Source of the DNA: Escherichia phage vB_EcoM_IME537
Length of the DNA stretch: 64,000 bases
Sequence record: NC_054921.1
Strand: one strand, 5' to 3'
Shown: piece by piece, positions 23,486 through 44,670 of the stretch
Layout of the letters: the number at the start of each line of letters is the position of its first letter
Numbering within the stretch: the first letter of the stretch is position 1
Made by a program: the position numbers and the translations under genes
The notes under the pieces: model-generated
Database searches by the model: none
Told to the model about the DNA's origin: nothing
The model's input: only the letters and a program-made list of their open reading frames with translations

Positions 23486-24013
23486 TTATGCGAGTACCGT
23501 CTTTAACCGTTCTTCAAACTTCCGAAGAGTATTTTGGCGTTCAGCTCTTTGCTTTTTGTAAGTTTCAATACGCTCTGAAATGAGAGTGTATCGTTCATTT
23601 ACTGATTCTTTCATAAAATCAGGAATTTCACGAGAAGCTTTAATCTCGTCAAATTTATCAATAACAGCTTGCTCTTCAGCAATTAAGTTATCATACATTA
23701 AAATATCTTTCTTGATGAACTCAATATCTTCTTGAGTTACACGAGATAATTTAGATGCTTTATCCTTTTTGTACTGTTCGTTAGTATCACGAGACCAGTG
23801 TAATGTACGATTTTTATTCGTATTTTTGTAAATTTCTACAATACCGATCTCATCAATAATAACGATCCAATTCCAACGGGATTTGTAAATTTGTCCTCCA
23901 TCAACAATGATTTCACCTCCGATTGAGATGTCGTTAAAGAACTTGCTTTGTGCTTCAGATTTAAATTTACCATCGTTGTAATTTACCAGGTTGAAAATAT
24001 CTTTAGCGTTCAT
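23486..24013 (-). CDS. hypothetical protein
   Basis: 175 aa; early promoter directly upstream. Confidence 0.5.
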   Translation of the reverse strand: MNAKDIFNLVNYNDGKFKSEAQSKFFNDISIGGEIIVDGGQIYKSRWNWIVIIDEIGIVEIYKNTNKNRTLHWSRDTNEQYKKDKASKLSRVTQEDIEFIKKDILMYDNLIAEEQAVIDKFDEIKASREIPDFMKESVNERYTLISERIETYKKQRAERQNTLRKFEERLKTVLA

Positions 24014-24041
24014 TTTCTGTTCCTCCGTAGTTGATAGTTGT

Positions 24042-24071
24042 ATAGTACCACAGAGGAACAGTCTTGTAAAC
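24042..24071 (-). promoter_or_regulatory. sigma70-type early promoter (-35 GTTTACA, -10 TACTAT with TG extension)
   Basis: transcript strand GTTTACAAGACTGTTCCTCTGTGGTACTAT. Confidence 0.55.
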
Positions 24072-24073
24072 CA

Positions 24074-24388
24074 CTAAAAGAAACTTCTTTCACAATTTTT
24101 TCCACTGAACCATGCGCTCACTGCTTTCTTAGTCTCAGGAGCAGTGTTATCCATAAACCATTCAAAGGCAGCCTTTTTATGATTCTGGAGGGCTTCTCGG
24201 GCTTTAATCTGCTCACGGTCTATTAACACTAACATATGAGCCTTTCTTGTCACCATGGGCTTCTTATGATTTTTTGAATACTCCCAGTCATTTGTCCATC
24301 GCATTGTCGTTGCGAACTGAAATACTGCTTCTTTAATTTTAGTTTCGTAAATTTCACGAGCCTTTGAGTATAACATCACTACCTCCAT
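24074..24388 (-). CDS. hypothetical protein
   Basis: 104-aa ORF, ATG start. Confidence 0.45.
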   Translation of the reverse strand: MEVVMLYSKAREIYETKIKEAVFQFATTMRWTNDWEYSKNHKKPMVTRKAHMLVLIDREQIKAREALQNHKKAAFEWFMDNTAPETKKAVSAWFSGKNCERSFF

Positions 24389-24458
24389 TCACCAGTTTAA
24401 TTCTAGTCATCTTTTTAATGGCAGTCCATATAATCTATTTCTGAACTGCCTTTTTGTC

Positions 24459-25178
24459 TTAGGATTCTTCTAAATGTCTTTTCTGAAAAGTTGATACCAT
24501 ACTACGATACGGTTCATTTGGATATCCGTGTTTTATAGCTTCCTTTGTAAATTTTCTCCATCCATATTTAGTTTCTTTCCAAAGCTCGAATAATTCATCT
24601 TCATACTGCCATATAGTTAAATGAGAACGCTTTGCAGCTTTAATTCCATTAATATGCTTTTCTTTTACTGCAGGATTGCTTAGTTTCTTTTTAATAATAT
24701 TACTAACTTTTCTAACAAAAACTGGGTCCTTATATCGTTGCGAAGTTTTTATTGAAGTGTTTAATTTAGCTTCCGGCGTGGATGTAACCTCTTTCATCTT
24801 TTTCTTCATATGCTGTATATGATTAGGATTTTTCCATAAATTTATAGAATGCTTTTTGCATTTTATCCTAGTTTCATCTGCAACCTTTCCTCCTTCACCC
24901 CCGTATGACAGGTTAACACAGTTTTTTCCATATTTCAATTTACCTGCCATGATATATAATATTTCAGCTTGTACCATTTTATCATAATTATCAAAAACTT
25001 CTAAAACCGTTTTTGATAATATGTGGTCATTTGACACTTTTACACGTTCTATATAATTTCCACTACCAACATACGAATCATTGATGTTATTAGTTATATG
25101 TCGACCATAATAGTATTTCTTAATACCTGTCTTTAAATTTAATATTTCAGTTTTATAGATAGTAAAATATTTTTTCAT
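24459..25178 (-). CDS. free-standing Seg-family GIY-YIG homing endonuclease
   Basis: 239 aa; N-terminal GIY-YIG-like motifs and GGEGG, as in the segB product in this window. Confidence 0.65.
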   Translation of the reverse strand: MKKYFTIYKTEILNLKTGIKKYYYGRHITNNINDSYVGSGNYIERVKVSNDHILSKTVLEVFDNYDKMVQAEILYIMAGKLKYGKNCVNLSYGGEGGKVADETRIKCKKHSINLWKNPNHIQHMKKKMKEVTSTPEAKLNTSIKTSQRYKDPVFVRKVSNIIKKKLSNPAVKEKHINGIKAAKRSHLTIWQYEDELFELWKETKYGWRKFTKEAIKHGYPNEPYRSMVSTFQKRHLEES

Positions 25179-26143
25179 TTTAATAATACCGTTTCAGCAA
25201 TTTCTTCCCAACCGTTTTTATCGGTCATAATAAAGTCAGCAAGATAAAGAGCAGTACGCAGTGAAACATTGCGTAAACGATTAACATTGACTTTCATCCA
25301 TGATAATGCTTTATAAGTTTCTTCATCAGAAAGACCGCGCTTTTGCATCATGTCGGTTGAAAGAATAACATCTTCAACCCTGACCATAATTTCTTCATTA
25401 GTGTGAACACCCAAATCCAAATAAACTGAGCGGGATACTAATGCTTGTAAATGTGGAGCAAGTTTAGTACCACGGTCTAATTCGCGGTCAATGTCAACGT
25501 TTGTGATAAAAACAATCGTTCCTTTAAATTCAAACTCACGCTCAATGCCTTTTTCTTCTAAGTAAGAAGATGCAGTGCTCCAGCAGACTTTACGGGTCTC
25601 TCCAGTGTCCAGAGCGGCTTTTAGAAGATTAAGAATGTCCATATCAGAGAAAACATCCACATCATCAATCAAAAGGACAGAATTCTCTTCACGATTATTC
25701 CAAAGTTGTTCATAAAGACCGATACCGGAGATTTTACCGTTAATGCTTTTATATTCAATGTATCCATTATCATTTGCTTTATTCAAAGCTTTATCTAAAG
25801 AATACGTTTTACCAATACCTGCTGCACCAGAGATAATTAATGAACGAATGTTTCCGTTAATAATACCATTCGTCATCATTCCCATAACATTAAATCTTTT
25901 ATTAATGCGGGTTTTCATATCTTCATATGATTCTTTAACTTCTTCAACTTTTACACCATCATATGAAATGTCTGATTTGTAAACCCAAACACCGCGACGT
26001 TTACCGTCAATTTCAACAAAAACTTTACCATCTCCTTGTGCATCTACCGGAGCATTATCTGGGAACCATTCACCTAAGAGCTCAAAAGTTCCAGAGATTT
26101 CTTTACCGAAGTAGATACCCTTATTGATAGTTACAGTTTTCAT
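25175..26143 (-). CDS. P-loop NTPase (AAA-like)
   Basis: Walker A GAAGIGKT, Walker B VLLIDDVD; start set to ATG 26143 with SD GGAGA. Confidence 0.6.
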   Translation of the reverse strand: MKTVTINKGIYFGKEISGTFELLGEWFPDNAPVDAQGDGKVFVEIDGKRRGVWVYKSDISYDGVKVEEVKESYEDMKTRINKRFNVMGMMTNGIINGNIRSLIISGAAGIGKTYSLDKALNKANDNGYIEYKSINGKISGIGLYEQLWNNREENSVLLIDDVDVFSDMDILNLLKAALDTGETRKVCWSTASSYLEEKGIEREFEFKGTIVFITNVDIDRELDRGTKLAPHLQALVSRSVYLDLGVHTNEEIMVRVEDVILSTDMMQKRGLSDEETYKALSWMKVNVNRLRNVSLRTALYLADFIMTDKNGWEEIAETVLLK

Positions 26144-26179
26144 TTTATTCTCCAATTTTACATTTGTTTTGATAGGGTA

Positions 26180-26209
26180 ATAGTATCACACTACTACCCT
26201 GCTGTAAAC
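26180..26209 (-). promoter_or_regulatory. sigma70-type early promoter within an inverted repeat
   Basis: GTTTACA-N17-TACTAT; flanked by GATAGGGTA / TACCCTGC. Confidence 0.5.
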
Positions 26210-26212
26210 AAT

Positions 26213-26476
26213 TTATTTTAATGTTCGCCAAATTTTTACTGCTTCGCGACGAGATACTTCTACAGCTCCAAGTTCTACAGCTTTTTGGCGTCGCCGAGCG
26301 TGTAAGTCATAATGTTTAATGCGTTTATCTTGAAACCAAGAACGTTTCATTCCTATTGCTTCTGCCATTTCGTGAAGCTCTTCAATATCTCCATCAGTGA
26401 ACATATGACAATTTTTAGTTGGATGACCGCGAAGTTTCCATCCATGATTCATTAAAACATCTACGTAAACTGTCAT
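26213..26476 (-). CDS. small conserved protein, DUF4031-like (recalled motif only)
   Basis: 87 aa; GWKLRGH...EELHxxAxxIG...WFQ...HYDL pattern. Confidence 0.45.
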   Translation of the reverse strand: MTVYVDVLMNHGWKLRGHPTKNCHMFTDGDIEELHEMAEAIGMKRSWFQDKRIKHYDLHARRRQKAVELGAVEVSRREAVKIWRTLK

Positions 26477-26622
26477 TGATTCTTCTCCAAATAAGTTTCG
26501 ATAATTTTCTGAGCGAGATAAACTGCATTATCTTCAGTTGCATCTTCTAAGAAACTTTCAAAACACTCTGAAATTTCTTCTGTGTCAATCAACTTTTTTA
26601 CTTCAATTGGTGTAATTTTCAT
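26473..26622 (-). CDS. small acidic hypothetical protein
   Basis: 49 aa from ATG 26622; the track's N-terminal extension spans a hairpin. Confidence 0.3.
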   Translation of the reverse strand: MKITPIEVKKLIDTEEISECFESFLEDATEDNAVYLAQKIIETYLEKNQ

Positions 26623-26687
26623 TTTGTTTTTCCGTTTAAGTGTTTGTTTTGATAGTTGTATAGTACCATAAGCCCGAAGGCTCCCTA

Positions 26688-27701
26688 TCATTTATAATAA
26701 CTTCGGTGGTTTTCAAGATAGACCTTCTCAAGGAAGTCATCCCAGAAACTCATGTCTACTGTTTTAGGCATACCGTTCTTAGAAGCTTCAGTAGATGCTG
26801 CTTCTACTTGATCGACCACATCTTCCAAAAACTCTTGAACCGTTTTAAATGGATGTTTACCCAACTTCACGTCAAGAATAAATGGAGCGTCTTGAAGTGG
26901 ATAAACCAAGTCACCAGTTTTGTAAATTTCCAATAGTTGAAGTCCACCACGACAAGCATGGCTCAGAGCTTTCCAGTCAATACCTTCGTTGGCTTCGGCC
27001 TTACGGGCACGTTCACCATATTCAGCATCTAATTTGTTCAGTGACTGCTTAAGCTCAATAAGAGAAAGCGTTGTCTGATATTTACGACCCAACACAGTGT
27101 AGAACATTTGCGGGCCTGTTTTCTCATAATTATGGAACACCCATTCACAGAACTCGTTTTCTGGAAGACGATGCTTAATATCTTCAACTTTAGTGCGACG
27201 AAGTCTATCAGGGATTCCTTCTTGATAGTCGACCCACTGGTCAGGGATTTGATTAACTACTTTCAATACATCACGTAATGCGGCCAAACGAGAACCCTTG
27301 ACACCGTATTTAGAAGCTTGCTTACGGACATATCCTAAATAGGATTTCATGTTAGTCGTATAAAAACGAGAACGGTTGTCTTGAATAAACTTCCACACAT
27401 CAGGCAAATCAGATTTAACCACTAGCTCAGGTGGAGTGTGAAGCATATCTAATGCTACAGTTTCACCATCTGCTGCTAATTTAAAGAAATACTTAAGACT
27501 GTATAGTTCATGGTCAATATCATCTTTAGTGTTTTTAGATGATGTGTTGTTAGTGTTTTTACTCATGTGCTCTTTAACGTTTCCAATAAGAATATCACGA
27601 GCAGGAGGAACAAAGATTTCTTTAAAATCTACATCAGATTCTGGTGTAGAAGTTCCATAAAGATGACTACCAAAATAACTTTTCATTACTGTTTTCATCA
27701 T
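26688..27701 (-). CDS. Pol-beta-superfamily nucleotidyltransferase, specificity unknown
   Basis: 337 aa; N-terminal GS-x10-DVD motif (GSHLYGTSTPESDVDF) and a downstream acidic residue (ALDMLH). Confidence 0.55.
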   Translation of the reverse strand: MMKTVMKSYFGSHLYGTSTPESDVDFKEIFVPPARDILIGNVKEHMSKNTNNTSSKNTKDDIDHELYSLKYFFKLAADGETVALDMLHTPPELVVKSDLPDVWKFIQDNRSRFYTTNMKSYLGYVRKQASKYGVKGSRLAALRDVLKVVNQIPDQWVDYQEGIPDRLRRTKVEDIKHRLPENEFCEWVFHNYEKTGPQMFYTVLGRKYQTTLSLIELKQSLNKLDAEYGERARKAEANEGIDWKALSHACRGGLQLLEIYKTGDLVYPLQDAPFILDVKLGKHPFKTVQEFLEDVVDQVEAASTEASKNGMPKTVDMSFWDDFLEKVYLENHRSYYK

Positions 27702-28159
27702 TCAGCCTTATATTCAATAACAGGACACACTTTAGCTTTACGAGCTTTTAAAAATTCAACGATAATCGATTTCTTGGGTTGAATAGGAGGTAAACCTTTA
27801 TACGCCCTATCAATGTTTTCTACGTGTAAAGCATAATCCTTTTTCCATTTATAATCTTTATATTTTTCACGCAAATGTGCAGGAATAACAAATGAACCGA
27901 TAATAAGTAAAACAACAAAAAGCGCAAGTATAAATGCCGATGGAAGAAGAATCCATAAACTACCGAAAATAAGCCAACGTTGTAGGCTTTCTGCACAAAT
28001 AATTGTTAGCCCTACGAGTATAGCACATCCAAAAATAGAAACGAAAAATGTAGGAATGGCAATAGACCAAAAATATGCGCATAGTGTCTTAGGTCGTTGC
28101 CATTCATCGTTAAACAATTTGAATAATTTATAGTGCCAAGAGTTTTCATTAATAATCAT
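27698..28159 (-). CDS. membrane protein
   Basis: 153 aa; 3-4 predicted transmembrane helices. Confidence 0.5.
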   Translation of the reverse strand: MIINENSWHYKLFKLFNDEWQRPKTLCAYFWSIAIPTFFVSIFGCAILVGLTIICAESLQRWLIFGSLWILLPSAFILALFVVLLIIGSFVIPAHLREKYKDYKWKKDYALHVENIDRAYKGLPPIQPKKSIIVEFLKARKAKVCPVIEYKAE

Positions 28160-28161
28160 AA

Positions 28162-28683
28162 TTATCCTTTCATTGAAGGTGTAACAGTTGTTAAATACTT
28201 AATCATAGCCTCAGCTTCTGATTTTGATAATGAAATTTCTCCATTGTTTTGACGAATAGAAATAAAATCCGGATGACGGTCACCACCAGCTTTTAAAACA
28301 CACATATAAGTATCAGTTTCATCTTCAATATTTGAAATGATTGAAGCAGTTCCACATGAATGCGGTTTTTGATAAATCAATACAGCTTTTCTTCCGCCAT
28401 TTGACTGTTCATAAACTTTTAATACATCAAACAAATCACTTCTTTTATCAATAGCTAAAATGTTATTTTCATCTTCAATGTTAAATCCTTCGGATACTTC
28501 ATAAAGTGTCACCCATAAATCGCCAATATCAATAACAGCGTTCACTTTTCCATGACTTTCAAGAGCATGACAAATTTTCTTGATTTCGTCATAACTCATT
28601 TTAATAATATCATCTCCTTGACTAAGAAAGATGTCATTTTTAAATTCAACACGAATTAAACCGCTTCCACTTGAAATAAACAT
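28162..28683 (-). CDS. hypothetical protein, intact member of a two-gene paralog pair
   Basis: 173 aa; GFNIE motif; C-terminal domain homologous to the out-of-frame region upstream. Confidence 0.5.
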   Translation of the reverse strand: MFISSGSGLIRVEFKNDIFLSQGDDIIKMSYDEIKKICHALESHGKVNAVIDIGDLWVTLYEVSEGFNIEDENNILAIDKRSDLFDVLKVYEQSNGGRKAVLIYQKPHSCGTASIISNIEDETDTYMCVLKAGGDRHPDFISIRQNNGEISLSKSEAEAMIKYLTTVTPSMKG

Positions 28684-29231
28684 ATTTCCTCACTTTGAAA
28701 TCATAGTTGGAATAACAGAATCAAGATAAGTCTTTAGCGCAATAGCTTCGTCTTTGGTAAATGTGACAATATGTGCTCGAGAATCATCAATTTGACGAAT
28801 AGTTAAGACATCTCCTTCTTCATAGCATTTTGATACATTTAAAACAGTTTCATCATTCTGATCGCACTGATCGCAAGCGTTAGTAATAATAGCATTGCAA
28901 TTTTAAGCCATTTTAAACTATGTTTTCTTTCATTAGAATAATAAAAATATTTAATGTAAGTTATAAAATTATCCCAATTATTAATTGATAAGCATATTGA
29001 CTCGCTTTCAATGTTAAATCCTGGGCATAAAGAATAGAAATGAATTTTATGCTCATCATTAATGCTTACAATTTTATCAGTATAAGGATATTCAATTTGG
29101 GTTAAATGAATGATTTCACTAGGCGTAAAATATAGCATATCGTCTTCTTGCGTCAAACGATACATGTTATTTACTTTTTCTATAGCCAATTCACCAAAAA
29201 GCGGACTAACTTCTAGTACTAATCGTTTCAT
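28684..29231 (-). pseudogene. frameshifted paralog of 28162..28683
   Basis: ORF 28839..29231 carries the GFNIE N-domain; the homologous C-domain is encoded in a different frame at 28684..28838 with no start codon. Confidence 0.45.
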
Positions 29232-29232
29232 A

Positions 29233-29499
29233 TTAATCCTTTTTATTGGCACGAATTTGTTCTAAAATTTTAGAATATTCCTTTGTATCAGATTTACGTA
29301 CAATTGATACACTATAAGGCATACTATCGGTGTCTTTTATAAAGCGTTCCAAATGACACTCTAACAAAATTTCTGGATTATAAATCGTGTACATCAAATT
29401 ACCTGTTGCTCCACGATATTGGCAGATTTCTACTGATTGAACACCATTCCATAATTTTGTTAAAACTAAATCACCTACTTCTAATTTAGGAAAGCCCAT
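29233..29499 (-). CDS. hypothetical protein
   Basis: 88 aa from ATG 29499. Confidence 0.4.
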   Translation of the reverse strand: MGFPKLEVGDLVLTKLWNGVQSVEICQYRGATGNLMYTIYNPEILLECHLERFIKDTDSMPYSVSIVRKSDTKEYSKILEQIRANKKD

Positions 29500-29500
29500 G

Positions 29501-29818: not shown

Positions 29819-29848
29819 ACTATACCATAACCTTGCCAACTTGTAAAC
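29819..29848 (-). promoter_or_regulatory. sigma70-type early promoter (-35 GTTTACA, -10 TATAGT)
   Basis: GTTTACAAGTTGGCAAGGTTATGGTATAGT on the transcript strand. Confidence 0.45.
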
Positions 29849-43313: not shown

Positions 43314-43389
43314 TGGTCGAGGCAGTAGGGATCGAACCTACGACCTAGGACTTAGAAGGTCCTTGCTCTTCCTTCTGAGCTATGCCCCG
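43314..43389 (-). tRNA. tRNA-Arg: tRNA-Arg (anticodon UCU), CCA encoded
   Basis: hand-folded cloverleaf; T-arm GGTTCGATCC; anticodon loop CTTCTAA. Confidence 0.8.
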
Positions 43390-43392
43390 TAA

Positions 43393-44058
43393 TTAAAATT
43401 TCATTTTTCGACCTTTAAACCATCCTTCTGGAATTGGGTCAGTTTTCTTAATACGTTTAGAAACTTTTTCATCTAATGAATGAATCCACATCATACCAAA
43501 TTGGGAATTCTTTTCTCCTTTCTGGTGATTATTTTTAGCGTGAATTTCTTTCATTTTATTAATAGTTTCAGGAGTATGATGCTTATTTAAAAATCTGCTA
43601 TTATTTAAAAATTTTTCCTTGTATTCAGGAGTTGACCACAAACGTTTAAATACATTTGAACCAATTTTACGATATTTTTCTTGAAGTAAAATATCATTTT
43701 CAAAACGTGATTTAAACGATTTAGCTCCTTTTAAGCTAGCATCTTTCTTCTGGTTTAGCATCCCAGGAATATTTATATGGTCCCATCCACCTTCACCGCC
43801 AAGTTTTAAATTATACACATCTGGTCTATTTAAAAACTCTTCTGTGACAATATTTTTCTCGGCTTCAAGCATAGATTCTTTATCATCAAAATACTCTAAT
43901 ATTTCTTTAGAGAAATTTTCTATACCATACTTGTCTTGGGCTCTTTTTAATAATTTACCAGAACCCATATATCCATCATCTAAATTTTCGGTAGAATGCA
44001 CACCAATATAAATTTTATTATTAATTTTATTTGTTATTTTATAAGTGTAATGGAACAT
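43393..44058 (-). CDS. segB: GIY-YIG homing endonuclease SegB
   Basis: 221 aa; YTYKITNKINNKIYIG...GGEGG; embedded in the tRNA cluster as in T4. Confidence 0.85.
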   Translation of the reverse strand: MFHYTYKITNKINNKIYIGVHSTENLDDGYMGSGKLLKRAQDKYGIENFSKEILEYFDDKESMLEAEKNIVTEEFLNRPDVYNLKLGGEGGWDHINIPGMLNQKKDASLKGAKSFKSRFENDILLQEKYRKIGSNVFKRLWSTPEYKEKFLNNSRFLNKHHTPETINKMKEIHAKNNHQKGEKNSQFGMMWIHSLDEKVSKRIKKTDPIPEGWFKGRKMKF

Positions 44059-44099
44059 AAATATCTCCTATTTCTAAGAGTATTTATGTTCCCAAAATA

Positions 44100-44171
44100 T
44101 GGCCCTGGGTGGAATTGAACCACCATCTGGCGATTATGAGTCGCTTGCTTGAACCTTCCAGCTACAGGGCC
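44100..44171 (-). tRNA. tRNA-Ile: tRNA-Ile (anticodon CAU; lysidine-type assumed by T4 gene order)
   Basis: cloverleaf; T-arm GGTTCAATTCC; anticodon loop CTCATAA. Confidence 0.7.
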
Positions 44172-44177
44172 TTGATA

Positions 44178-44250
44178 TGCTGATTGACGGAATCGAACCG
44201 CCGACATCCTCATTACAAGTGAGGTGCTCTACCTACTGAGCTAAATCAGC
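44178..44250 (-). tRNA. tRNA-Thr: tRNA-Thr (anticodon UGU)
   Basis: cloverleaf; T-arm GGTTCGATTCC; anticodon loop CTTGTAA. Confidence 0.8.
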
Positions 44251-44257
44251 GAAATTA

Positions 44258-44344
44258 CGGAGGCGATAGGATTTGAACCTATGAGTCGCCGGAGCGACTG
44301 CCGGTTTTCAAGACCGGTGCATTAAACCACTCTGCCACGCCTCC
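44258..44344 (-). tRNA. tRNA-Ser: tRNA-Ser (anticodon UGA), long variable arm
   Basis: 87 nt; anticodon loop CTTGAAA; T-arm GGTTCAAATCC. Confidence 0.8.
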
Positions 44345-44346
44345 AG

Positions 44347-44420
44347 TCTCCGCGGCAGGATTTGAACCTGCGACATTCTGCTCCCAAAGCAGACGCTCTA
44401 CCAAACTGAGCTACACGGAG
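44347..44420 (-). tRNA. tRNA-Pro: tRNA-Pro (anticodon UGG)
   Basis: anticodon loop TTTGGGA; T-arm GGTTCAAATCC. Confidence 0.8.
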
Positions 44421-44432
44421 TAAATTAAATTT

Positions 44433-44504
<72 letters not shown>

Positions 44505-44509
44505 AAATT

Positions 44510-44596
44510 TGGTGCGAGAAGTGGGACTCGAACCCACAAGGAAATCATTCCGCAGCATTTTAAGTGCTGTGCCTTTACCAATTTGGCCATTCTCGC
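44510..44596 (-). tRNA. tRNA-Leu: tRNA-Leu (anticodon UAA), CCA encoded
   Basis: 87 nt with long variable arm; anticodon loop CTTAAAA; T-arm GGTTCGAGTCC. Confidence 0.8.
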
Positions 44597-44597
44597 G

Positions 44598-44670
44598 CTG
44601 GGAATAAAGGACTCGAACCTTTGCATCCTGGAATCAAAATCCAGTGCCTTACCAACTTGGCTAATTCCCA
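44598..44670 (-). tRNA. tRNA-Gln: tRNA-Gln (anticodon UUG)
   Basis: anticodon loop TTTTGAT; T-arm GGTTCGAGTCC. Confidence 0.8.

Follow-up and report, generated by a model that had tools for sequence, protein, structure and literature searches.

RNA repair as a means of counter-defence was discovered in phage T4, whose RNA ligase and Pnkp genes lie elsewhere in the T4 genome than the genes considered here. RlaP enzymes add one or two NMP to RNA 3'-OH ends, an activity demonstrated only for PfRlaP and PaRlaP; among E. coli macromolecules, the characterised enzymes labelled RNA alone (bioRxiv 10.64898/2025.12.29.696909). In the crystal structure of PfRlaP a C-terminal helical domain and a terminal helix are packed on the nucleotidyltransferase (NTase) domain. 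T4 NrdC.11 was named as a member of the family in the same 2025 preprint, where it falls in similarity cluster 5, apart from the assayed enzymes (bioRxiv 10.64898/2025.12.29.696909). An RNA-repair role of phage RlaP-type NTases was predicted earlier (Burroughs and Aravind 2016, as described in later papers), and the hypothesis that NrdC.11 restores nucleotides lost to trimming anticodon nucleases is also found in Carruthers et al. 2025. The AAA domain of NrdC.10 and the NTase domain of NrdC.11 were already recorded in 2006 (PMC1524935). Genes inserted into T4-type phages can be bracketed by a terminator hairpin and an early promoter, as in the promoter-early stem-loop (PeSL) cassettes (PMC2839356, PMC4122927).

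We analysed a window of 64,000 nucleotides from the T4-like (Tequatrovirus) genome of vB_EcoM_IME537. A preliminary description had singled out three neighbouring ORFs as one early cluster with a possible anti-defence or host-modification function. All three are present, on the minus strand, and their products had been typed correctly as a P-loop ATPase, a DUF4031 protein and a Pol-beta-fold NTase (GS/DxD and a further invariant Asp). A fourth gene, encoding 49 amino acids, had been overlooked. The flagged genes are genuine and not chance ORFs, since homologs of the NTase were found by tblastn in 1516 phage records and homologs of the ATPase in 1310. They are the catalogued T4 genes nrdC.11 and nrdC.10 with a small mobile two-gene cassette between them. 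Two of the three ORFs are therefore known T4 genes, which largely undoes the proposal of a new cluster by its own terms. The features of the region are:

24459..25178, minus strand: homing-endonuclease-like gene, 239 aa (phrog_314 'homing endonuclease', E 1.4e-30)
25175..26143, minus strand: nrdC.10 ortholog, AAA+ ATPase of 322 aa (beta-rich N-terminal domain, about 62 residues)
26180..26209, minus strand: T4-type early promoter driving nrdC.10, part of the downstream PeSL-type motif as its promoter half (promoter scan, pattern search)
26213..26476, minus strand: 87-aa basic DUF4031 protein, pI 9.7, second gene of the cassette (Pfam PF13223)
26473..26622, minus strand: 49-aa acidic ORF, pI 4.2, first gene of the cassette (phrog_6888, fPS-65 annotation)
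26660..26685, minus strand: remnant of a PeSL-type terminator/early-promoter motif (alignment with T4 and fPS-65)
26688..27701, minus strand: nrdC.11 ortholog, RlaP-family (PF10127) Pol-beta-fold NTase (Pfam, identity to T4, invariant residues)
27698..28159: membrane protein, 153 aa, upstream of nrdC.11 in the direction of transcription

The membrane protein gene had been placed after the cluster; it precedes nrdC.11, and its stop is overlapped by the nrdC.11 start. The homing-endonuclease-like gene directly follows nrdC.10 with overlapping start and stop, and is annotated in relatives as a DNA endonuclease or segE-like. T4 has no homing-endonuclease gene at this position, only nrdC.9 and then nrdC.10. 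We treat this gene as context, outside any module.

The nrdC.11 nucleotidyltransferase and the RlaP family

The window's nrdC.11 product was found to be 95% identical to T4 NrdC.11. In its 337-aa reading, G-S is followed after ten residues by D-V-D; in T4 and the homologs translation begins at the next ATG (27698), one codon further on, giving 336 aa. NrdC.11 matched the Pfam RlaP profile (PF10127) with an E value of 3.2e-11 (43.8 bits, gathering cutoff 23), as did 30 of 30 diverse relatives (best E 2.2e-19), and it was assigned to phrog_388 'nucleotidyltransferase'. Residues G10, S11, D22, D24 and D62 were invariant among 30 relatives of 33-54% identity, with D62 aligning with the third Asp (LDL strand) of canonical RlaP. 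Judged by its sequence, NrdC.11 is a member of the RlaP family with the catalytic residues kept.

Other families gave no comparable match. NTP_transf_2 (PF01909) stayed below threshold (13.6 bits, cutoff 21, E 0.09, residues 10-27 only), no SMODS or CD-NTase family was hit in Pfam even at E 0.1, and a PADLOC-DB search returned zero matches at E 0.01; PADLOC and NCBIfam searches gave nothing informative. Of the profile matches envisaged in the preliminary description, DUF4031 and, through RlaP, the NTase fold were recovered, but SMODS, CD-NTase, MNT and NTP_transf_2 were not reached. Against PDB chains, nothing significant was found in sequence searches with NrdC.11, NrdC.10 and the DUF4031 protein or in profile searches with NrdC.11 and the DUF4031 protein; no RlaP sequence was found among the chains searched.

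NrdC.11 shares with RlaP the N-terminal NTase domain, above the Pfam cutoff, including GS, DxD and the third Asp. It differs in size (about 336 aa, where canonical RlaP has about 250-270) and in its C-terminal two thirds, which neither the Pfam model nor hhalign aligned. The Pfam match covers the N-terminal NTase half only (model positions 23-143 of 249), and the hhalign alignment with canonical RlaP, itself of low probability (26%), ends at residue 89. As the C-terminal 200 residues lie outside the RlaP alignments, NrdC.11 may have a different substrate specificity. A Deferribacter relative (338 aa, 25% identical to NrdC.11) matched positions 2-246 of the RlaP model, suggesting that the homology could be continuous into the C-terminal part of NrdC.11.

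Bacterial homologs were found near RNA-repair genes. RtcB is 2.5 kb away from the Deferribacter homolog. A homolog on an Asticcacaulis plasmid (35% identity over the full length, E 2e-59) belongs to a Hen1-Pnkp-NTase-NTase operon, in which the NrdC.11 type and the canonical RlaP type stand side by side. Because both are present in one operon, the two types are probably non-redundant, with distinct roles. The name RlaP stands for RNA ligase-associating, whereas phage nrdC.11 has no adjacent RNA ligase gene: neither RNA ligase nor Pnkp adjoined it in the window or at 40 distant phage loci. Clustering of the neighbours at distant loci gave lineage-specific synteny only, for example with NadV/NatV-like and Macro-domain genes at 7-10 of the 40 (recognised by motif only).

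The DUF4031 cassette and its PeSL-type motifs

The 49-aa ORF matched phrog_6888 over its full length (E 5.5e-31) and ends in a TGA that overlaps the DUF4031 start codon (ATG). A 72-aa reading from ATG 26691 was rejected as probably having the wrong start; both the full-length phrog_6888 match and the annotation of the ORF in fPS-65, as a CDS of 150 nt, favour 49 aa. The DUF4031 protein is a full-length match to PF13223 (E 8.2e-22, 77.7 bits, cutoff 25.6), including the H-Y-D motif of the family, with H55, Y56 and D57 invariant. The invariant Asp, His and His-Tyr-Asp residues point to a small enzyme that uses a metal ion or acid-base catalysis. Its weak fold matches include the tRNA-related MnmE and tRNA splicing endonuclease.

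The cassette is not in T4; we found it in 309 phage records. The 49-aa ORF was directly upstream of DUF4031 at all 13 DUF4031-carrying T4-like loci, which represent two insertion sites, one between nrdC.11 and nrdC.10 and the other about 2 kb downstream of nrdC.10. Across the DUF4031 family at large, the pairing was seen in T4-like phages only. No RlaP, RNA ligase or RNA-repair gene and no recurrent partner was found beside DUF4031 in three metagenomic/genomic sets and ten bacterial genomes.

We found that the sequence at 26180..26209 is an exact match to the T4 early-promoter pattern GTTTAC-N-TG-N-TACTAT, with 17-18 nt between GTTTAC and TG-n-TACTAT. The pattern occurs 19 times in the window, against 3.3 expected, with 18 of the 19 matches on the minus strand. 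The site coincides in position with the nrdC.10 promoter of T4 and is a predicted early promoter in the fPS-65 annotation. It had been described as driving the whole cluster. The promoter is real and of T4 type, but it lies downstream of nrdC.11 and DUF4031, so that it can drive only nrdC.10 and the homing-endonuclease gene behind it.

On the other side of the cassette, alignment with T4 and fPS-65 revealed a 52-bp deletion that took the 3' stem, the T-run and the -35 box GTTTAC. What is left at 26660..26685 is the 5' half of the hairpin (GGGAGCC TTCG GGCT) fused directly to the -10 box (TGGTACTAT). The T4 hairpin has a folding energy of -17.3 kcal/mol (z -3.9), and the remnant -8.4 kcal/mol (z -1.0) with no U-run. 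No terminator-like site was found in 24000..29500, while both T4 and fPS-65 have a terminator and an early promoter between nrdC.11 and the next gene. With the upstream terminator and the -35 box gone, the cassette of vB_EcoM_IME537 is predicted to be co-transcribed with nrdC.11 by read-through.

This arrangement resembles the PeSL cassettes in that terminator-hairpin and early-promoter motifs flank the inserted genes, that the -10 box and downstream sequence (TACTAT..CTATCAAAACAAA) are repeated on both sides and that related phages carry the cassette at differing positions. In the window the downstream promoter is complete, and fPS-65, which carries the same cassette, has a complete upstream motif. 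The window differs in that its upstream copy is truncated, leaving the cassette with neither a promoter of its own nor a preceding terminator.

nrdC.10 and its linkage to nrdC.11

The nrdC.10 product is 99% identical to T4 NrdC.10 over 316 residues and is the same protein as this orphan AAA+ ATPase (phrog_1250). Its gene starts at ATG 26143, preceded by a GGAG ribosome-binding site; TTG 26155, the start in the ORF list, was rejected, as annotated homologs begin elsewhere. The protein has the AAA+ fold, with Walker A (GAAGIGKT), Walker B (LLIDDVD), sensor-1-like N, SRS and sensor-2-like R motifs, the P-loop core motifs being accompanied by an alpha-helical lid. For a specific AAA+ clade (clamp loader, MoxR, Orc/Cdc6 or STAND), no profile scored above its cutoff and no structural match was clearly best. 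NrdC.10 is essentially confined to T4-like and some jumbo phages, with almost no bacterial relatives. Neighbour clustering found no conserved partner at distant NrdC.10 loci. A 26%-identical NrdC.10-like gene of one marine T4-like lineage has a YqeY-like gene nearby and an RNA ligase about 2 kb off.

NrdC.10 was found within 6 kb at 31 of 78 NrdC.11 loci, in identical order and on the same strand, in phages of Escherichia, Klebsiella, Enterobacter and Acinetobacter. At all 31 of these loci, NrdC.11 is at least 51% identical to that of the window. NrdC.10 was missing nearby at several NrdC.11 loci of 64-81% identity and at every locus of 50% or less. In the reverse count, NrdC.11 lay within 6 kb at 9 of 43 NrdC.10 loci and was absent at 34. 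In Aeromonas phage 25 about 105 kb separate nrdC.10 from nrdC.11, and the numbers of records by genus are differently distributed for the two proteins. The adjacency is confined to close T4 relatives, and the genes are unlinked in distant ones; NrdC.10 presence is independent of RlaP.

Proposed roles of the early genes and alternatives

The reading of nrdC.11, the cassette and nrdC.10 as a single new anti-defence module is not supported. Against one functional cluster stand the location of the DUF4031 cassette elsewhere in other phages, the terminator and promoter in T4 and fPS-65, and the lack of linkage between nrdC.10 and nrdC.11 beyond close relatives. Taken as a whole, the region is in our judgement probably a mosaic stretch of the T4 hyperplastic (accessory-gene) region, with an RlaP NTase, an inserted cassette and an orphan AAA+ ATPase as independent early genes. 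By homology to the characterised Pseudomonas RlaP, NrdC.11 would most likely add one or two nucleotides, untemplated, to the 3'-OH of broken RNA. Likely substrates would be tRNA halves cut and trimmed by host anticodon nucleases, and the phage Pnkp and Rnl1/Rnl2, whose genes lie elsewhere in T4-type genomes, could afterwards join these into full-length tRNA. We infer both the substrate and the role in infection from this homology. Recombination at the PeSL-type motif that separated nrdC.11 from nrdC.10 would have brought in the cassette, which after the 52-bp deletion would be expressed by read-through from nrdC.11. The nrdC.10 gene, encoding the orphan ATPase, would be expressed from its own early promoter.

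A different possibility is that NrdC.10 and NrdC.11 cooperate, with the ATPase remodelling damaged tRNA, ribosomes or RNA-protein complexes or delivering them, which would give the NTase access to the broken 3' end. The shared order and strand of the pair across many genera of close T4 relatives is consistent with this, as is the marine lineage in which an NrdC.10-like gene neighbours YqeY-like and RNA ligase genes. We nevertheless consider such cooperation unlikely: the two T4 genes have a strong terminator hairpin and a distinct early promoter between them, and the gap is a cassette insertion site. The pair is also unlinked at most NrdC.10 loci and at all those with the more divergent NrdC.11, it is widely separated in Aeromonas phage 25, and its members differ in distribution among genera. 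Bacterial RlaP operons have no such ATPase, and NrdC.10 itself is almost without relatives in bacteria. Another suggestion is that the 49-aa and DUF4031 proteins have become RlaP accessory factors in this phage (for instance an enzyme that processes RNA ends, with a regulator) through the transcription unit fused by the deletion. With the terminator and -35 box lost, read-through from nrdC.11 is the only evident route of cassette expression, the invariant Asp and His residues of DUF4031 are typical of a small enzyme, and some of its weak fold matches are tRNA-related. The cassette of fPS-65, however, has its own terminator and promoter next to an nrdC.11 with an in-frame stop codon, other phages carry the cassette beyond nrdC.10, and DUF4031 was never beside RlaP or RNA ligase in the phage and bacterial loci examined. 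We regard this suggestion as highly improbable.

The preliminary description had proposed that the NTase acts by adenylylating a host target or by producing or destroying a nucleotide messenger, which would make the cluster an anti-CBASS, anti-Thoeris or anti-Pycsar module. The Pol-beta fold does include CD-NTases and protein-adenylylating enzymes, the C-terminal 200 residues of NrdC.11 extend past the RlaP model, and nrdC.11 is an early gene that laboratory growth does not require. Yet RlaP was the sole Pfam family above cutoff, with neither the nucleotide-signal families nor PADLOC giving a match, full-length homologs in bacteria were found at RNA-repair loci (Hen1-Pnkp, RtcB), and characterised RlaP enzymes labelled only RNA (bioRxiv 10.64898/2025.12.29.696909). 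Signal synthesis, signal degradation and protein adenylylation thus found no support, and we hold this proposal to be very unlikely. An anti-defence function survives only in the form of repair of tRNA cut by host anticodon nucleases, not as a nucleotide-signal module.

The genes nrdC.10 and nrdC.11 and the RNA-repair hypothesis are already known, and the additions are modest: that the genes form no module, that DUF4031 and its overlooked 49-aa partner make up a mobile cassette, and that a deletion rewired the transcription of this cassette. A further addition is the occurrence of NrdC.11-type and canonical RlaP paralogs together in a bacterial Hen1-Pnkp operon. A bolder view, which we put forward as doubtful, is that the 49-aa and DUF4031 proteins are an enzyme and its partner, together a self-contained mobile unit whose activity would be new (perhaps counter-defence, or nucleic-acid or nucleotide modification), spread among T4-like phages through PeSL recombination, and that, separately, NrdC.11 with its unmatched C-terminal region of 200 residues is an answer to nucleotide-excising anticodon nucleases such as RloC. 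If true, the latter would add a third enzyme to the classic Pnkp/Rnl1 tRNA-repair pathway of T4. If NrdC.11 restores the nucleotides removed by trimming anticodon nucleases, it would close a gap in how phages cope with RloC-type enzymes.

Gene content of the nrdC region

The interval 24400..28700 matched 712 phage records by megablast, and nearly all of these belong to Tequatrovirus or related T4-like phages; identity over the full length reached 97% at best. The plus strand of the window follows the standard T4 map order, with the early genes on the minus strand. We confirmed the three open reading frames of the preliminary description, and its protein typing was correct (DUF4031 by Pfam, E 8.2e-22; nucleotidyltransferase as detailed below), but it had overlooked a 49-aa ORF:

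24459..25178, minus strand, 239-aa homing-endonuclease-like gene (phrog_314), starting on the nrdC.10 stop codon
25175..26143, minus strand, nrdC.10, 322-aa AAA+ ATPase
26213..26476, minus strand, 87-aa DUF4031 protein
26473..26622, minus strand, 49-aa acidic ORF, stop codon overlapping the DUF4031 start; matches phrog_6888 end to end (E 5.5e-31)
26688..27701, minus strand, nrdC.11, 337-aa nucleotidyltransferase
27698..28159, minus strand, 153-aa membrane protein (phrog_944), stop overlapping the nrdC.11 start

NrdC.10 and NrdC.11 are 99% and 95% identical, respectively, to their counterparts in the T4 reference. Pfam gave only AAA and STAND matches for NrdC.10, all sub-threshold. As the T4 nrdC.11-nrdC.10 gap is only 114 bp, the DUF4031 gene is extra in the window. 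T4 has no gene at the site of the homing-endonuclease-like gene and carries mobD, a homing endonuclease gene, where the window has the membrane-protein gene. The C-terminal end of NrdC.10 reads …IATGYSSEINS in T4 and …IAETVLLK in the window phage and most relatives. Full (100%) identities came from different phages: Shigella phage SP21535 for NrdC.11, EC128 for NrdC.10 and PD112 for the DNA of the DUF4031 gene and the small ORF (hereafter the cassette). By these matches 25175..27701 is a mosaic, which fits frequent recombination in the hyperplastic region.

The DUF4031 cassette and its regulatory motifs

A word-indexed search found 92 DUF4031 relatives, in which D6, H24, Q49, H55, Y56, D57 and G70 are invariant. 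Structure prediction gave a confident DUF4031 model (pLDDT 93), but a structural search with it returned no convincing relative. In a Drouetiella MAG (L137 5001..5612), a 204-aa ORF has DUF4031 at its N-terminus and continues for ~110 further residues, possibly a domain fusion that could hint at function. Its neighbours in other phages, prophages and bacteria are early, DNA-metabolism or mobile genes; no recurring partner or RNA-repair genes were found near it in those examined. In T4-like phages the 49-aa ORF always precedes DUF4031, even where the two have diverged to 72-76% and 45% identity. The cassette is carried by 309 phage records in total and occupies two sites, the nrdC.11/nrdC.10 gap or ~2 kb past nrdC.10. 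A 72-aa version of the small ORF, which the ORF lister and certain annotations give, has its start codon within a regulatory-motif remnant (described below) and is probably wrong; the 150-nt version is the annotated form in phage fPS-65.

The window has 19 matches to the T4 early-promoter pattern where 3.3 are expected, 18 of the 19 on the minus strand, and the early promoter proposed at 26180..26209 fits the pattern exactly. In T4, the gap holds a strong hairpin with a T-run (-17.3 kcal/mol, z -3.9) followed by an early promoter. This is a motif of the PeSL (promoter-early stem-loop) type, described as driving the shuffling of modules among T4-type phages (PMC2839356, PMC4122927), and in fPS-65 such a motif flanks the same cassette on both sides. 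A 52-bp deletion in the window and in phage ZN18 removed the 3' stem, T-run and -35 box, fusing the 5' half of the hairpin straight to the -10 box; the remnant in the window folds no better than shuffled sequence. With these parts lost and the nearest early-promoter match further upstream on the minus strand at 29819..29848, the cassette in the window would most likely be transcribed by read-through from nrdC.11.

Linkage of nrdC.10 and nrdC.11

The preliminary description had proposed that ATPase, DUF4031 protein and nucleotidyltransferase form a single anti-defence or host-modification module. An HMM search found an NrdC.11-type gene within 6 kb in 9/43 NrdC.10 loci from IMG/VR. NrdC.10 lies within 6 kb in 31/78 NrdC.11 loci. 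NrdC.11 was at least 51% identical to that of the window at all 31 linked loci; NrdC.10 was absent within 6 kb from several NrdC.11 loci at 64-81% identity and from every locus at or below 50%. The two genes lie ~105 kb apart in Aeromonas phage 25, and genus-level counts of NrdC.11 and NrdC.10 differ (Klebsiella, 286 vs 149; Vibrio, 59 vs 121). The single module is thus not supported: these distributions, the terminator and promoter between the genes and the mobile cassette point to inherited synteny rather than functional coupling.

One other arrangement was seen:

L037 4341..9613 (IMG/VR marine T4-like contig), NrdC.10-like AAA+ gene (26% identity) between YqeY-like and Rnl2-type RNA ligase genes

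The gp59 and gp32 genes are close by. This arrangement was confined to one lineage (L035-L037), and such proximity is not enough to alter the verdict of inherited synteny.

NrdC.11 and RNA repair

NrdC.11 is a member of RlaP (RNA ligase-associated Pol-beta nucleotidyltransferases; PF10127), a family already known from RNA repair; its Pfam score is 43.8 bits, above the cutoff of 23. CD-NTase, SMODS and MNT profiles gave no match. A PADLOC search found nothing for NrdC.11. Searching 1.84 billion cluster representatives yielded 3497 relatives (830 with E below 1e-30); the best 150 of these were mostly 300-350 aa with 34-59% identity, save a few fragments. All 30 diverse members examined matched RlaP and no other family; they share G10, S11, D22, D24 and D62 without exception and almost always keep D60 and D84. 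Profile alignment paired the third catalytic Asp of a canonical RlaP with D62, at low probability and over the first 89 residues only. The assignment is not new: the nucleotidyltransferase domain was noted in 2006 (PMC1524935), and a preprint already counts T4 NrdC.11 among the RlaPs, with its function unknown and in a different similarity cluster from the enzymes assayed there (bioRxiv 10.64898/2025.12.29.696909).

Relatives in bacteria link NrdC.11-type proteins with RNA repair. One of them (35% identity over full length, E 2e-59) is encoded third in a Hen1-Pnkp-NTase-NTase operon, where the fourth gene encodes a canonical RlaP (236 bits):

pASDW145_1 (Asticcacaulis plasmid), locus L145 1077..6790, Hen1-Pnkp operon with two tandem RlaP paralogs, NrdC.11-type (327 aa) and canonical (269 aa)

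The tandem suggests that the two types differ in job. Another relative, of 338 aa and matching the whole RlaP model, is encoded 2.5 kb from RtcB on a megaplasmid of Deferribacter. The RNA-repair reading agrees with the literature: linkage to RNA ligases gave RlaP its name, and two Pseudomonas RlaP enzymes extend the 3'-OH ends of RNA by one or two NMP, both preferring damaged RNAs (bioRxiv 10.64898/2025.12.29.696909). A jumbo-phage survey had earlier predicted that phage RlaPs restore nucleotides lost to nucleases such as RloC, before ligation.

NadV/NatV-like NAD salvage and Macro-domain genes, recognised by sequence motifs only, lie a few kb from NrdC.11 in 7-10/40 loci (Aeromonas, Vibrio and Cronobacter-type T4-like phages; L092-L103 and related), probably as lineage synteny. 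nrdC.11 is deletable in T4, and one ortholog carries an in-frame stop codon beside an intact DUF4031 cassette:

L133 2035..3045 (Yersinia phage fPS-65), minus strand, nrdC.11 ortholog annotated as two ORFs, in-frame stop (…RGGL*LLEIY…)

Given this stop, the fPS-65 gene would be either inactivated or suppressor-dependent.

The window also holds a tRNA cluster, which presumably resembles the T4 tRNA region:

43314..44670, minus strand, eight tRNA genes (Arg, Met, Thr, Ser, Pro, Gly, Leu, Gln)

The cluster may be relevant here, with phage tRNAs and tRNA repair as parallel answers to anticodon nucleases.
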